Part shown: positions 22,068-28,984 of the stretch, piece after piece
Layout of the letters: every line of letters begins with the position of its first letter
Numbering within the stretch: position 1 is the first letter of the stretch
NCBI GenBank assembly: GCA_963677485.1
Contig: OY781964.1
Location: forward strand, 1,344,001-1,408,000
Direction of reading: 5' to 3'
From: Armatimonadota bacterium
GTDB lineage: Bacteria; Armatimonadota; HRBIN16
DNA length: 64,000 nucleotides
The notes under the pieces: generated by a model
The model's input: only the letters and a program-made list of their open reading frames with translations
Databases searched by the model: none
Told to the model about the DNA's origin: nothing
Position numbers and translations under genes: made by a program

Positions 22068-24812
22068 TTACGCAATAATGATAGAAACCCCCGCCACGCC
22101 CCAGTCGGCGGGCAGGAACAACAGATTTCCGCTGGTGCTGCTCAGGCGGAGCGTCAGCGTATGGTCACCTGCCGCAAGACCGCTCACGTCGAACCGGTAG
22201 GGTGGGGTGACGCGCTTGCCCAGCGACTGACCGTCCACTAGCAGCTCCAGGCAGTCGTGTTTGAGCAGTTCCACATCGAAACCCACGGTCTGGTTGGCCT
22301 GCGGCTCGGAAAGCGAGAAGCGGCCCTCCAAGCCCATCACGCCCATGTACTGCTCCCATCCCTGCTGCATCAGGTTGATCGGCAGGTGCTGAGGGGTGAA
22401 GTTTTCGGCTGTGATGACGCAGTCCACCAGCCGGAAGTCGCCCATCAAGCAGACATCGCATGAGGGCATTACGTCCGCCTCGAAGAAGGCGTCGTTGTGG
22501 ACACTGGTTTCGAACTGCGGATACTCCAACCGCGCCGTCACCTGGTTGGTGCCCACTTTGACCAGACCTAGAATGTCCACGCAGCCCAGCCTGTCCCAAA
22601 CGATCGCCTCTTGTGCCTGCGAAAGATACACACTCTGGCCATTGACGGTCAGGGAGCGCAGATACTCGGTCTCAAACAGCATCCCCAACTGAGTTGGCAG
22701 GCTCTGGCACTCAAACTGAGCACGCATCTCAAAGTGGGTCTCGCCGCGCAGGACGGCAGGGATGCCGGTGCAGTTTCGGGGTAGTTCTGGTATGAACGGG
22801 TCCATACTGGTGGCTGCGATCCAGCCTTCTTGGCCTCTGAACTCCATGTCGGACAGGGTGGCGGTGTTGGCGGTCTCCGGCGTCACACTCCACATCACAT
22901 CCAGAGGCTTCTGATGGCCCAATACGGGCTGAGCTGAGCTGGGCACGGCGGATGAAGTGAGGCTGAGGTATAGACAGCCCTGTGGGGCCATACAGTGCGC
23001 TTCTACGCCCTCCACAGCATACACAGCACCCGACAACGGCTCCCAGCGTGCCATATGCTGGCTTGAGCTGATGTTCACCGACACCGCTTCGGATGTGGTG
23101 TTGCGCAAGGCGAACAACTCACCATCACCGAACTCGTAGCGGGTCACCCGGATGGAACCAGCGGGTGCGTCGGTCTGCAGTGTCAGTCGCTCTGCCCAGC
23201 AGGACTTCTCTGAGGTGATATGTTGGATGATCTGAGCCGCAGGCTGGCGAAGAATCTGCGCGTTTTGTTTCTCCAGTCCGTCCAGCACCGCATCAGTGGC
23301 CTCGAAATATCTGAAATCTGAGGGGGCAATCAGCGCATCATATTCTGCATAAGGGAACTTGATGTGTCCGTCGCACAGCTCAGCCTGTCCCACCATCTCC
23401 GGGAACACAAACTCATAGCTTTCGCCTGCCTCATAGATCGCCCGACATACCTCCTCGGTCAGCGGCATCACCGGTTCCCCAGGCAAGCCAAAGCCGTTCT
23501 GGAAGGGGTTGTTCTGCTCCAGTTGATACTGCGGGTAGAGGACGGCGTAGCGGGCCTGGTGCTGGCCCAGCGAGGGCAGTGCGATGGAACGTGCGAAGGC
23601 ATCGCGGAACTGCGGAAAGAACTCCCACCAGGGGCAGCTTTGGAACAGCGGCGGCCAGTAGGTGCGCTTTCGTACACCGGTCAAGCCCTGATGGAAGCCC
23701 ATCAGCGCGATGTCGTTGATGCCGTAGATGCCGAACATCTGCGCCCGCTGCAGCATATCGGAGAGCCGCAGGTCATATCGCGAGATACCGAACGCCTCGC
23801 AATATACCCGGTCATGCCCGGAATGCCGTGCGATGCTGGGCACCAGCACCTCCTCCATGAACACATGTTCAGGATCGGGCATCATACCCAGGTAGTCGAT
23901 GCCCGGCTCATCCATCAGCGACAGGCACTGGTAGGCACTGCCGGCAAACTTCACCTGCATCAAGAACGCATTCTCCCCCAGATGGCCCGTATACCCCACC
24001 CCGTGAGCGTGGCACCAGTCCGACATCTGGGCGTGGTAGGCCTCCACATGCATCTGCTTCACCACGGCCCAGTAATCCTGGCGGAATTGGCATGGGGCCG
24101 GATCGGTCAGCTCCACATAATGGGCCTGTATGTCGTAGCCATGCATCTTCTCAAACCGCGCAGGCAGCTCGGGTGTCCAGGGCAGTCCGATGGTGTTCCA
24201 GCAGCCCTCCAGCCTCTTCTCGTTGATCACCATTGTGGTGGGCTCATCGGTGAAGAAGCCGCGCACCACCTCATGGAACAGCTCGCCACACTCTTCGTAG
24301 ATTCGCTGGTGGTTCATCTGGATAAAGCAGTTCACCGCGTCGACGGATAGTGTGTCCAGATAGCCGATCTCGTTTTGTGTCCATGGGGCACCAAGCGTGT
24401 TATCAAGCTGCACATCGGGATGAGAGGGCACTGCGGTCACGGCTCCGTGCTCATCCTTGTCGAACTTCAGGAACCAGCCGTTAAACTCCGGGTGCTCGCG
24501 CAGCAGGAAACCGCCAGCCACCCCGCTGGGCCACCCAAACTCGTCATACACCCACACCTTCAGACCGTGCTTCTTAGCAAGTGTCAGCGCATGCCGATAC
24601 CGCTCGAAGAACTCGTCGGACAGGTATGGGATGGTCATACCGTGTACGGGGTGGATCAGGAACTCCCGCAACCCGCTCGCGGCCATTTCAGCCACCACTT
24701 CGTCCATACGGGTATGGTTCATGTCGGCATTCCAGAACCAGAAGGCGCTGGGTCGGTAAGGTTGGCTCATCTCCAACCAGTTTTCGGCAAGGGTGTGCAG
24801 AGAGTTACTCAT
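22068..24812 (-). CDS. Glycoside hydrolase, GH106/alpha-L-rhamnosidase-like
   Basis: AFWFWN, YDEFGWPSG, GFFTDEP, PGIDYL; ATG 24812 after AGGAG. Confidence 0.75.
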   Translation of the reverse strand: MSNSLHTLAENWLEMSQPYRPSAFWFWNADMNHTRMDEVVAEMAASGLREFLIHPVHGMTIPYLSDEFFERYRHALTLAKKHGLKVWVYDEFGWPSGVAGGFLLREHPEFNGWFLKFDKDEHGAVTAVPSHPDVQLDNTLGAPWTQNEIGYLDTLSVDAVNCFIQMNHQRIYEECGELFHEVVRGFFTDEPTTMVINEKRLEGCWNTIGLPWTPELPARFEKMHGYDIQAHYVELTDPAPCQFRQDYWAVVKQMHVEAYHAQMSDWCHAHGVGYTGHLGENAFLMQVKFAGSAYQCLSLMDEPGIDYLGMMPDPEHVFMEEVLVPSIARHSGHDRVYCEAFGISRYDLRLSDMLQRAQMFGIYGINDIALMGFHQGLTGVRKRTYWPPLFQSCPWWEFFPQFRDAFARSIALPSLGQHQARYAVLYPQYQLEQNNPFQNGFGLPGEPVMPLTEEVCRAIYEAGESYEFVFPEMVGQAELCDGHIKFPYAEYDALIAPSDFRYFEATDAVLDGLEKQNAQILRQPAAQIIQHITSEKSCWAERLTLQTDAPAGSIRVTRYEFGDGELFALRNTTSEAVSVNISSSQHMARWEPLSGAVYAVEGVEAHCMAPQGCLYLSLTSSAVPSSAQPVLGHQKPLDVMWSVTPETANTATLSDMEFRGQEGWIAATSMDPFIPELPRNCTGIPAVLRGETHFEMRAQFECQSLPTQLGMLFETEYLRSLTVNGQSVYLSQAQEAIVWDRLGCVDILGLVKVGTNQVTARLEYPQFETSVHNDAFFEADVMPSCDVCLMGDFRLVDCVITAENFTPQHLPINLMQQGWEQYMGVMGLEGRFSLSEPQANQTVGFDVELLKHDCLELLVDGQSLGKRVTPPYRFDVSGLAAGDHTLTLRLSSTSGNLLFLPADWGVAGVSIIIA

Positions 24813-24881
24813 GATGTCTCCTGAATGATGAACGTATCGGTAATATTTAACCACAACCGCAGTCTTCTGGGCAGACGCACG

Positions 24882-25195
24882 AAGGGCGGTTCTCGAACCG
24901 CCACGACACGCCAGACCGCGCCAGGGATTTGTCTGAACCACGGATTACACGGATGGGATCGGATAGGTTCGGATGGGAAGGGAGGCCAATCAGGAGATTG
25001 GCGTTCCCAGGGGAATTCCCCCTCTGCGTCCTTGCATCCTTGCGCCTTTGCGTTGGTTGATCGCACCTTTCGTGCCGATAACCAAATCTGCGCAATCTGC
25101 GTCATCTGTGGATTTAAATCCCTTGGTGCCTCATGCCATCAGCTACGGAAATGGCCTTTCCTCGACGCAAGAAGGGCGGTTCGCGAACCGCCCCT
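24882..25195. repeat. Mosaic of REP-like hairpins and short-period repeats
   Basis: AAGGGCGGTTC(T/G)CGAACCGCC twice, GCCAATCAGGAGATTGGC, and ACCACGGATTACACGGAT also seen near 35600. Confidence 0.7.
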
Positions 25196-25209
25196 AGTAC
25201 GCTATATAT

Positions 25210-25410
25210 GGTGAGCTCCCCGGACACCAAAAGCAGTCGGGGAGCTAATCTCACCCCTTAGCTGGGGGTGAAGGAGAAGGATTGGATGCCGGAACCGCCC
25301 CTGGTGGAAAACACCGTGACGTAGATAGGCATCCTTCTCCCAATCAACCCATATCGAACAGTATCTTGGGAGAAAACCCCGTGTTCGCTAGGCTGATTTG
25401 GTTGATTGCA
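25210..25410 (+). ncRNA. Predicted IS110 bridge RNA (ends approximate)
   Basis: 5' hairpin plus two stem-closed internal loops whose guide segments match the target and donor junction sequences. Confidence 0.85.
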
Positions 25411-25441
25411 CCATCAATCACTACCAACTGGAGATTACCAC

Positions 25442-26718
25442 ATGCACGAAGTTGAAGACAAAATCTACATCCATTATGTCGGGATCGACATCTCGAAATT
25501 GACGTTTGACGCGTCTGTATTAGGTTCATCGCACAAGCCGATAGACCATAAGGAGTTCAAGAACAACAAGGCCGGATACAAGGAGTTGTTGTCATGGGTG
25601 AAGAAGCTTACCCGAACTCCCGCCTTGTATGCGGCTGAAGCCACCGGGCCTTACAGCCGACCGCTGCTTGATTACCTCTACGAGCACCAGCACGATGCTG
25701 TCCAACTGGAGCCAAAACGGGTTCTCTATCACCGCAAAGCCAAAGGCTGGGAACAAAAGACGGACTGCTCTGACAGCGTGCTAATCGCTGACTATGTGAA
25801 AAGTCACAATGTCTCACTCTATGTCCCTCGTCTAGCATGCTATGATGCGCTTATTGGTTACACCAATGACCGCCGTATGAGGCGATCGCCCAGCGCCAAA
25901 GCTGTCGGCTTACGCGGAGCACAGTGCTGGACGAGATGATCGCTTTTCATGACATGGGCATCAAAAAGCTTGATGTTCAGATCAAAGAGCTTGTGATGAG
26001 TTCACCGCAGATGACCGAAGATATGGCTCTGCTGAAGAGCATTCCGGGTATCGGCGACGTCACAGCAAGCTATTTCCTTGCGAAAATCGGTGATGCTAAA
26101 CGATTTGAAACATCGAAAGCGGTCGCGCGCTATTTCGGAATGAACCCCTGCCCGCAACGGTCAGGAAGCTGCAAGACATACGACGGCTCCATATCCAAGA
26201 TGGGTGACCGATATATGCGGACATTACTCTACTGTGGATCGAGCACTGTGGTGAAGATGGTCAACGGTAAGTCGAAAAAGCTTGGCCAGAGCATGCACGA
26301 CTTCGTGAAGGAACTGCAGCATCCGAATTTGGTAAAGAATCCCAATAAGAAACCGAAGTCCAAGCGAGTTGTCCGGTGCGCAATCATGCGCAAGCAGCTG
26401 GTGCTCATGTGGTCGGTATTAATCAGCCGTCAGCCATATGATCCAAACTTCGGCATCGAACAAGCTTCAAATGCGGCCAACCAGCAACCGCTGACCGACG
26501 CGAACGGACATGTCCAGGATCGTGCCGGAGCGGCCCATGATATAGCCGGTGTAGGCAATGATCCTGGGCTGGACGTGAGCGTTCCAAGACGGGGATGCGT
26601 GGATGGAAATCCCACCAATGAGCCCACTCCTGCCGGCGGTGGTCGGCCCGCATCCCGAAACCGGCCATCGCGCAGTCGGGTGGGCAACAAACCGAGGGTT
26701 CTGACACCAGTATCCTAG
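25442..26718 (+). pseudogene. IS110 recombinase split by a frameshift near 25878
   Basis: Frame 1 has GIDISK, EATG, KTDCSD (DEDD). The -1 frame has SIPGIG, YFGMNP..RSGS, ISKMGD. Confidence 0.85.
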
Positions 26719-27073
26719 CTGCGGCAGTCTGCCGATAGCACGCATCGAAGCATAACGATATCTTTCGAAGCCACGAAGATGTCGCACGTCCGTTCGCGAC
26801 TCCGAGCGTCATGTGAGGTGCTACGGACCAACTGATGCCATCTGAGCCTGTTTCTGTCGCGGATCCAGGTTTGGTCTATATGCCACAAACATCACATTAA
26901 CGTTATTCTACGTGGTCTAGAGCCAGTGTCTGATATTCAGGTCCAAATCCCCAGATTTGCCCCTGGGGACTTGACAAAAGCCACAGTATCTACGAATATA
27001 TGCGGTGAGATCGGGTTTTGGGGGCGATGTGTAGGGGCGTTTCGAGAAACGCCCTTCCCATGCTGCCGACGGT

Positions 27074-28984
27074 TTAGTCTCCCCGCACGGACACAATCCG
27101 AAAGGTGCCGGACTCCACGCTCAGGCTGACCTCGCCGCCCACCAAAGGCATCGCCAGCTCAGGATGCAGCTCATCCTGGCAGCGCAGCGGATTTCGCTCC
27201 GTTATGCCCATCCCACGACGGTGGAAGCTCAAGGCCGTCGTGACCCTGCTGCTGCCCAGATTCGCCACGATGAACAGGGCCCGATGTCCCTTCACCAGAT
27301 AGGCGCTGATCTTGATATTCTCCGTGTTAGAGGAATGGATCAGCTCCTGTGTCTTCCAGTACGGCACCCAGACTGCACCGGTCATCCCGAAAGATCCGAA
27401 GGCTTTCCAGATGTCCGACTGGTGCTCAGGATGCCATATCATCATCACATCGTAGAGTATGGCCAGACTGCGCGCCCGTTCGCGTTCGACCGCATTTCCA
27501 GATATCGGCAATTGGGTGGCGGGTATACCGAAGTTGTGCCCGTGCATCTCTGCACGGAACACATCCTCAGGGTATTCGGGAGTGCCCAGCTTCATCATCG
27601 ACAGCAGATGCTCGCCATCAACGTAGAAATCTGCGAACGAGAGGGCAGGCAGTAGCACGCTAGCCGAGGTGTGGCAGAACAAGATGCCTGGCTTTGCTTG
27701 ATCCTTGACCAGACGATACAGCCCCTTCATCAGCTCCCGCGTGCGCCAGATGGCCATCGTGGGGTGGATTGTGCCATCTTTGCCCCGATACCCGCAACCG
27801 TGCCGGGTGTTAACACACGGCAACGGACAGCTCAAACCGTCGGTGTAAATGCCCCCAAAGCCGTATTCGGCGACTGCCGCGGTGTATTGCTTCAACAGCA
27901 GCTCGGGATAGGGCGTGGCGTTACACACGATACGGCAGATGTCCTGGTTGTCGGGCCTTTGGTACTGGTAGTGATCGCCTATCGGCAGAGAATCCCATCG
28001 GCTCGAATATTCTGGCGATCGAGTGGACATATAGCACCCGGTATAGGGCACAAGCCGCATCCCCTTGGCTCTACAGGCCGCAATCAATGTCCGCAGCTCT
28101 TGAGGGTCTTTCGGCCTGGGCAGGCTCTGCTGGTCGGACCAAGACTCGTGAAACCCCAGATAGTTCACGCCCAGACCAGCCAGCACGTCCAGATAGGCGG
28201 GTTGAGTGGCAGGATCAGGGCTCTTCTCGATGCCGTATCCGCCCATATGGCAATAGCGCATTTGGTAGTAGTCGGCGGGCCACGGCTTCACCGGGGTGGC
28301 CATAAACCCAAAGCACCACTCCCAGTCACCGGTCAACCGATGACGGCTCAGCAGGTTCATCCTGAGGGTCGTCACATTGCAGTCTGGTAGCACCGTGATG
28401 GCACTCTCTGGGTCAGCAGGCGACCAGGGTTCATCGCTTTCGGAAAAGAACTGGATTCCCCTGTCGTCACTGCCCAGCCAAAGATGGTGAACAAACGGCA
28501 GCTTCATCCCCTCAGGCTTGACCGCACCGGCGTTGATGCGCTTTTTGGGCCAGTCCCACACATGAGTCGGGTAGACGGAAGCATGATGGAAATACGAGGC
28601 GTCGCTCCGCTTCAGAGGAATCACCAGATCCAGCGAATCCAGGCTGAGCTCTTTGCCTGCCGAGAGTTTCATGTCGATCCTGGTCATACCATCAAATTCG
28701 GTGGTGATTCGGCAGGTAACGGACAGCTCACGGCTGCTAGCATGGGTCACATACTGCACTGACTCCCTGTCGGAGCTCATTTCTTTGAATTTGATGTTGC
28801 TCCACCGCAGCCTCTTTCCAGCGGTGATGGCGACCAACTGCATCGGCCCAGCAAGGATGTTCTTCTTCTGCGAGATGACTTTCGCCGGAAGCAGCGACAG
28901 GTTGTAGTCGTAAACCCGCCCCCAGCAGTGAACCGACTGCCCCCGTATGACAGGGATGCTCCACGGTGAGATCGTTGCTGCCAT
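27074..28984 (-). CDS. Putative glycoside hydrolase-like protein (DUF6067-like)
   Basis: GGIYTDG, EFDGM and ATPVKP motifs; lies in the carbohydrate gene cluster. Confidence 0.55.
   Translation of the reverse strand: MAATISPWSIPVIRGQSVHCWGRVYDYNLSLLPAKVISQKKNILAGPMQLVAITAGKRLRWSNIKFKEMSSDRESVQYVTHASSRELSVTCRITTEFDGMTRIDMKLSAGKELSLDSLDLVIPLKRSDASYFHHASVYPTHVWDWPKKRINAGAVKPEGMKLPFVHHLWLGSDDRGIQFFSESDEPWSPADPESAITVLPDCNVTTLRMNLLSRHRLTGDWEWCFGFMATPVKPWPADYYQMRYCHMGGYGIEKSPDPATQPAYLDVLAGLGVNYLGFHESWSDQQSLPRPKDPQELRTLIAACRAKGMRLVPYTGCYMSTRSPEYSSRWDSLPIGDHYQYQRPDNQDICRIVCNATPYPELLLKQYTAAVAEYGFGGIYTDGLSCPLPCVNTRHGCGYRGKDGTIHPTMAIWRTRELMKGLYRLVKDQAKPGILFCHTSASVLLPALSFADFYVDGEHLLSMMKLGTPEYPEDVFRAEMHGHNFGIPATQLPISGNAVERERARSLAILYDVMMIWHPEHQSDIWKAFGSFGMTGAVWVPYWKTQELIHSSNTENIKISAYLVKGHRALFIVANLGSSRVTTALSFHRRGMGITERNPLRCQDELHPELAMPLVGGEVSLSVESGTFRIVSVRGD

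Follow-up and report, generated by a model that had tools for sequence, protein, structure and literature searches.

The two ends of an IS621-like insertion sequence in an Armatimonadota bacterium each carry one half of a promoter, and we consider it very likely that these halves compose a working junction promoter of the IS621 kind once the ends are joined. The element lies in a stretch of 64,000 nucleotides (contig OY781964.1, positions 1,344,001 to 1,408,000), hereafter the window, whose coordinates are used throughout. An outward-reading TTGACA in the right end (RE) and a TACGCT in the left end (LE) come to stand 17 nt apart when the ends abut, and a correctly spaced partner pair was found in all relatives compared. 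From the DNA sequence we infer that a circle forms in this organism, that the promoter is active, where its transcript starts and that transcription reads through into the transposase gene.

Ends, copies and target sites of the element

Window positions 25196-26991 are one copy of an IS110-family, IS621-like insertion sequence that occurs 12 times in the host genome, a single contig of 5.22 Mb. After orienting the copies, the first 25 and the last 25 bases proved identical in 12/12, while the flanks were unrelated. The dinucleotide CT stands immediately 5′ of the first element base in every copy and again at each copy's end. Ten of the copies are 1812 bp long; the window copy and one other are shorter by 16 bp, which are missing after position 25879. 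Besides this deletion, six single-base differences were found across the 12 copies, none of them in LE and none in the last 44 nt of RE. Because 12 copies share the same ends within differing flanks, the boundaries (CT, then 25196-26991) are exactly those given in a preliminary description of this DNA. That description had additionally taken the promoter as independent support for the boundaries. The boundaries are proven by the 12 copies; the promoter adds little to this proof. As expected for an IS110 element, insertion occurred at a short core that is present on both sides, with no longer target duplication, the flanks matching empty sites. Among contigs of public sequencing runs, the element assembled as a separate contig of 1820 nt that includes the 16 extra bases, at depths of 117 and 154 as compared to about 4-15 in the flanking bins. 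The element is cleanly delimited and recently active, 10 of its 12 copies are intact, and its host is far from Escherichia coli.

The ten long copies encode an intact open reading frame of 430 amino acids. This sister-copy protein matches Pfam PF01548 at 1.8e-21 and PF02371 at 4.4e-22, that is, it combines the N-terminal DEDD (RuvC-like) domain and the C-terminal Transposase_20 domain of the IS110 family. The window copy is frameshifted by the 16-bp deletion and cannot itself make the transposase, so it could use the promoter switch only if the ten intact copies supply the enzyme. Both short copies keep intact ends, promoter halves and the bridge-RNA region and would be non-autonomous, depending on the ten intact ones.

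The element is inserted directly 3′ of REP-like hairpins ending in CGCCC, followed by CT. A strict pattern drawn up for the commonest hairpin picks out one family that adjoins 10 of the 12 copies; the remaining two lie next to other hairpins that likewise end in CGCCC. The strict pattern occurs at 30 genomic sites: 10 hold the element, 18 are empty, and 2 are solo half-sites with the first seven LE bases only. The right flank begins with AC in 11/12 copies and with ACG in 4/12, and 17/18 empty sites read CT-AC.

Table 1. Features of the element and its flanks (window coordinates)
Feature	Position	Strand	Basis or remark
REP-like GC-rich hairpin, left target arm, insertion directly 3′	25174..25193	.	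same hairpin family in the strict-pattern sites
Left CT core dinucleotide	25194..25195	+	before the first base in 12/12 copies; empty sites read hairpin-CT-AC
Left end (LE), non-coding, 246 nt	25196..25441	+	identical in 12/12 copies; first variable column not before 25879
-10 half of the putative junction promoter, TACGCT	25198..25203	+	2 nt after the left CT core; AG at 25196-25197 between
Predicted bridge RNA	25210..25400	+	predicted start G 25210, 7 nt after the -10; 3′ limit approximate
Left-target-guide-like segment, target-binding loop, GAACCGCCCCT	25292..25302	+	identical (11 nt) to left flank plus core, 25185-25195
Right-target-guide-like segment with CGTAG	25318..25325	+	opposite GAACCGCCCCT; complement of core plus right flank CT-ACG
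Left-donor-guide-like segment, donor-binding loop, ACAGTATCT	25358..25366	+	identical to the element's last 9 nt, 26983-26991
Right-donor-guide-like segment	25381..25392	+	complementary in two pieces (CTAG, ACGC) to the first LE bases; by eye
IS110-family transposase gene, broken here by the 16-bp deletion after 25879	25442..26718	+	two overlapping frames, 25406..25939 and 25924..26718
Right end (RE), non-coding, 273 nt	26719..26991	+	copy alignment and reading frames
-35 half of the putative junction promoter, TTGACA, reading outward	26971..26976	+	15 nt before the right end; consensus 6/6
Right CT core dinucleotide, element's last two bases as drawn	26990..26991	+	copy comparison
Second REP-like hairpin in the right flank, opposite orientation, unoccupied target	27035..27054	.	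strict-pattern search

The joined ends probably compose a promoter

The final bases of the element read CACAGTATCT, ending in the right CT. Joining position 26991 to 25196 through one CT yields TTGACA-17 nt-TACGCT, the spacer consisting of 15 nt from RE and 2 nt from LE. The -35 hexamer matches the consensus at 6/6 positions and the -10 hexamer at 3/6 (T1, A2 and T6), 9/12 in total. The preliminary description had given precisely this arrangement: position and outward strand of the TTGACA are exact, as is the 17-nt spacer to the TAnnnT box after joining through CT. It had further placed the -10 just upstream of the predicted RNA, which agrees with a predicted start at 25210 that opens a bridge-RNA-like fold, and its general premise that IS110 circles form junction promoters is borne out by published work on IS621 (PMC11208160; PMC13626964).

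The layout corresponds to that of Pjunc-type promoters, with an outward -35 in one end and an inward -10 in the other that are 16-18 nt apart when the ends abut, and with no equivalent promoter in the integrated state. A consensus scan of the + strand of 24900-27300 revealed no promoter-like site at a threshold of at least 4/6 in each hexamer, a setting that the TACGCT box (3/6) would itself fail. The chromosomal hexamer located 17 nt upstream of TACGCT is GGCGGT, within the GC-rich flanking hairpin, and left junctions reach at most 8/12 in all 19 elements having enough flank. Alternative -10 boxes in the AT-rich segment 25203-25209 were rejected, as they lie at least 22 nt from the TTGACA and have no -35-like hexamer 16-18 nt upstream in the joined sequence. 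Junction 20-mers and 30-mers had 0 matches on either strand of the assembled genome. No joint from 26991 back to 25196 was seen in the contigs of four public runs (X1, X2, X6 and X8; 25100-27100), a comparison that is silent on circles, as contigs drop rare forms.

The host does use promoters of this very type. Counting TTGACA-Nx-TAnnnT in its genome gave 79 occurrences at x = 17, compared to 15-45 at the 19 other spacers from x = 8 to 27; over x = 8-15 and 20-27, the counts average about 24. By this rough measure, about two thirds of the exact-17 motifs in the genome would be present for a reason.

The left end encodes a predicted bridge-RNA-like structure

The segment that would be transcribed first from the joined ends folds into a pronounced structure. 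For 25210-25400, the minimum-energy fold has -74.7 kcal/mol with a z-score of -3.69, and none of 200 shuffled sequences folded as well. Its first base, G 25210, is also the first base of the 5′ stem, and besides a 5′ stem-loop and a short hairpin the layout has two stems that enclose large internal loops. As in the bridge RNA of IS621, the structured RNA is encoded in LE, one loop corresponding to the left flank plus core and another to the RE tip plus core (Table 1). A scan of 24500-27500 returned no Rfam family at E <= 1. According to the published strand rules, left guides are top-strand sense and right guides are complementary to the top strand (PMC11208160). The guide-like segments of the present element fit these rules, with the right-donor guide (25381-25392) being assigned by inference from its complementarity. 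In the related types B and C, the equivalent pairing is GCAT..ACAAG against their own LE start CT-TGTATGC, again read by eye. The left-target segment, in turn, matches the element's own left flank in types B and C, in L051 and L053, and in G039, G149, G261 and G287.

The putative promoter pair is conserved among distant relatives

Related elements were found at several distances. The own genome holds a second type, B, at 45% transposase identity, and a same-genus genome holds a third, C, at 42% and in nine copies; two metagenome contigs carry elements of the type C kind. Elements of about 30% identity were present in 14 further genomes of the phylum. Overall, 17 of 401 genomes had a match at E <= 1e-25, the own genome counted. 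From these we assembled a comparison set of 22 representatives at 30-45% transposase identity, taken from 16 genomes and 2 metagenome contigs.

RE tips were placed by the donor motif and LE starts by homology to the LE start motif, and this motif holds the first bases of the -10, so that the TA found there is partly given by construction. Independently of any promoter motif, LE starts are backed by copies with differing flanks for A, B, C, G140, G095 and G149, and in 9 of 22 elements by an exact repeat of 9-13 nt between left flank and target loop, found in an LE-restricted search; a wide-range automatic search for such repeats was set aside, as it gave mostly chance 6-8-mers. Individual members differ in completeness: LE of G037 begins at the contig end with the core not visible, the left core of G350 is TT, LE of G060 is separated from its gene by an insertion, and the gene of G106 is broken. 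The metagenome scan gave 34 loci, with only L051-L054 falling in the subgroup, L052 being without RE (contig end) and L054 without LE. L055-L084 were dropped for having no RE-tip motif after the gene, and L025 (G020) was dropped before counting for having no recognisable ends. L178, L179, L180, L182 and L184, further copies of elements already represented, were left out, and the plasmid IS110 loci L164 and L165 are outside the counts, being too distant for confident end placement. A single-protein search of the genome contigs returned no relative; an alignment-based search recovered the same-genus genome and, outside the counts, distant elements of other phyla (L093-L163, 23-36% identity).

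Across the joined ends, the best promoter reached 9-12 of 12 consensus matches in 22/22 elements. Of the integrated junctions, none of 19 on the left and 7 of 22 on the right, which share the -35, reached 9/12. Since the 22 elements are kin and not independent samples, these counts describe conservation and are not a statistical test. Eighteen elements have a common layout with a spacer of 17 nt: the first base of the -35 is found 21 nt ahead of the tip, and the -10 begins 2 nt past the core. Among the 17 distinct standard ends, CTTGAC is invariant (17/17), the next six positions, covering the 5′ part of the spacer, agree in only 6-13/17, and CACAGTATCT is nearly invariant. On the other side, all 17 ends keep LE positions 3, 4 and 8, which supply T, A and the final T of the -10, and 10/17 agree at position 7; LE positions 3-8 of the relatives read TATGCT, TATGTT, TATTAT or TATAAT. 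The window element has the weakest -10 of the 22 compared, and G350 carries the full consensus TTGACA-17-TATAAT. Three elements depart from the common layout. In G039 and G287, the -35 lies 4 nt nearer the tip and TAGGAT or TAGAAT lies 5 nt deeper in LE, giving a spacer of 18; in G261, the -35 lies 7 nt further in and TATCTT spans the core, with a spacer of 17. The -35 keeps its distance to the TAnnnT box while its distance to the tip changes, which is not expected of a hexamer serving donor recognition.

These comparative data support a promoter function, the split promoter being kept down to 30% transposase identity. Some of this conservation may be owed to recombination instead of transcription, since the right donor half is overlapped by the -10 and the left donor half coincides with the RE tip. 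We tentatively entertain, as a possibility we would neither press nor discard, that in the IS621-like clade the two promoter halves co-evolve and are superimposed on the recombination site: the -10 would sit on the right donor half read by the bridge RNA, TAnnnT would shift together with the -35, and T, A and the last T would be kept despite the donor change to AGTACG. If so, donor specificity would be mechanically coupled to expression of the excised form, and natural donor drift would be limited.

With respect to the second type, L046 and L049/L050 in the own genome, together with nine loci of G001, represent a second IS621-like type in the genus (42-45% identity) with its own hairpin targets and matching target loops. 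Matches of this second type to the window type by tblastn cross one in-frame TGA near the C-terminus, so the second type does not retain, as coding sequence, the long C-terminal tail seen in the window type.

Other readings of the conserved hexamers

The outward TTGACA might mainly act as a mobile -35 that forms hybrid promoters with chance -10 boxes in the right flank and so activates neighbouring genes, the junction promoter being incidental. The 7 right junctions at 9/12 or better point in this direction, and so does copy L008 of the same insertion sequence, which has TTGACA-16-CATTAT. However, no conserved -10 partner is seen in the flanks, whereas LE provides a correctly spaced one in 22/22 elements, and this partner moves with the -35 in three of them. 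For the window copy, GAATAT is the best partner that the flank offers at 17 nt; it lacks the first T, and a promoter formed there would point antisense into the 3′-terminal part of the gene at 27074..28984. We therefore regard a mainly flank-directed role as quite unlikely; as an additional activity, it is compatible with the junction promoter. At L008 itself (G000:C1 1660578-1662417), the right junction combines TTGACA with the flank hexamer CATTAT at 16 nt, a 10/12 match and a possible hybrid promoter into the neighbouring DNA.

A second reading holds that CTTGAC in RE and TGTATG or AGTACG in LE are conserved for donor recognition by the recombinase or the bridge RNA, their likeness to a promoter being a by-product. 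LE positions 1-7 indeed pair with the right donor guide and the RE tip with the left one, and donors are more conserved than targets (Durrant et al., PMC11208160). Yet the -35, at 16-21 nt from the tip, falls outside the 9-nt guide match, a variable stretch separating the two, and in 3 elements its tip distance shifts while the distance to TAnnnT stays at 17-18 nt. Moreover, the 22-bp donor of IS621, which does not include the -35 box, recombined only once a synthetic promoter supplied the bridge RNA (PMC11208160), which shows that recombination itself can do without the -35 region, whereas supply of the RNA cannot. Donor recognition as the sole reason for the conserved hexamers is accordingly very improbable to us.

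Finally, that a TTGACA happened to lie near the right end with a TAnnnT at the right distance by luck is hardly credible: the -10 is poor and a TAnnnT follows TTGACA at 16-18 nt in 70/1255 cases in the host genome (5.6%; 40/1255 at exactly 17 nt), so that the -10 alone adds only an about twenty-fold factor, but the 135 occurrences of TTGACA-N16-18-TAnnnT on both strands of the 5.22-Mb genome, taken with about 24 straddling start positions, give an estimated chance expectation of about 3x10^-4 per junction, which together with the host's sharp peak at x = 17 makes a chance arrangement unlikely, and the arrangement is kept in relatives at only 30% transposase identity.

Proposed mechanism and comparison with known systems

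For the junction promoter, we propose the following course of events. The element inserts at the CT core directly after REP-like hairpins. In the integrated state, the promoter halves lie about 1.8 kb apart, with the -10 facing a GC hairpin that offers no -35. In an excised circle or a tandem copy, RE, CT and LE would abut and form TTGACA-17 nt-TACGCT, from which the host sigma-70 polymerase would start near G 25210. Transcription from the junction would then yield the LE bridge RNA and, by read-through, extend over the transposase gene, and would thereby boost re-insertion of the excised form.

This scheme closely follows what has been described for IS621, in which a promoter at the RE-LE junction drives the bridge RNA and the -35 box lies outside the 22-bp donor (Durrant et al., 2024, PMC11208160; PMC13626964). 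Small-RNA sequencing of IS621 and five orthologues detected an RNA of about 177 nt originating from a predicted sigma-70-like promoter (PMC11208160). The integrated IS621 is reported to be weakly transcribed by read-through, with the junction promoter boosting expression after rare excision; given this low-level transcription, the promoter raises the supply of RNA without being its sole source (PMC13626964). The mechanism has thus already been published for IS621, and the present element opens no new question in this respect. What it offers is a case where the sequence directly displays the circle-dependent promoter, the guide loops and the target, a REP-like hairpin plus CT-AC.

The present element shares with IS621 the transposase domains, CT-core insertion beside REP hairpins and a long LE that is non-coding and takes a bridge-RNA-like fold. 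It also shares a -35 in RE outside the short donor and a -10 in LE, with the promoter whole only after joining, the likeness being one of layout. The IS621 donor oligonucleotide holds ACAGTAT-CT-TGTATG (PMC13396178), which is also the donor of most relatives found here. Compared to this oligonucleotide, the left donor half of the window element, ACAGTAT-CT, is identical, whereas the right donor half is AGTACG instead of the TGTATG of IS621 and most relatives. Due to this change, the -10 reads TACGCT and not TATGnT. The transposase is about 100 aa longer than that of IS621, and RE measures 273 nt. Identity of the transposase to annotated plasmid IS110 genes was at most about 30%, and blastn of the whole element against E. 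coli genomes gave no DNA match.

Outside the IS621 branch of the family, the ISEc11 Pjunc of the IS1111 group and the circle junction of IS492 are likewise promoters assembled upon circle formation. In the IS1111 group, the guide RNA follows the transposase gene, whereas the predicted guide RNA of the present element lies in LE. In circles or dimers of IS911, IS2, IS30 and IS21, the promoter is also divided between the two ends, one supplying the -35 and the other the -10, and is active only when they abut; these elements are DDE transposons with terminal inverted repeats, target duplications and no guide RNA.

Traces and variants of the element

Several sites in the genome and in the metagenomes bear a resemblance to parts of the element. 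The unoccupied hairpin at 27035-27054 sits 44 nt to the right of the window copy, placing the element between two inverted copies of its own target repeat. Six non-rRNA sites (G000:C1 near 264920, 1990838, 2010707, 2382963, 2851068 and 3436711) show a GC hairpin ending CCCC-CT, followed by the first 6-8 LE bases (AGTACG...) and then by unrelated DNA, with no insertion sequence. They resemble left junctions without an element and could be scars of imprecise loss, natural target variants to which the LE start happens to be similar, or chance. Three further LE-start matches fall in the sarcin-ricin region of 23S rRNA and were discarded as coincidental. The right flank of the window copy, 26992-27013, itself resembles the LE start, with 19 identities over a 23-column local alignment (score 20); the same score was reached by 11 of 5000 shuffles and by 21 of 20000 random genomic 32-mers. 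This flank could be the remnant of an older copy, that is, of a former tandem, or a chance likeness arising among 12 copies. In the metagenomic run X6, a variant about 94% identical to the element forms a contig of 1772 nt with 97 differences over 25239-26854; within its RE, 26855-26919 is diverged but unchanged in length. Other contigs of this run also carry the RE tip, 26964-26993 included.
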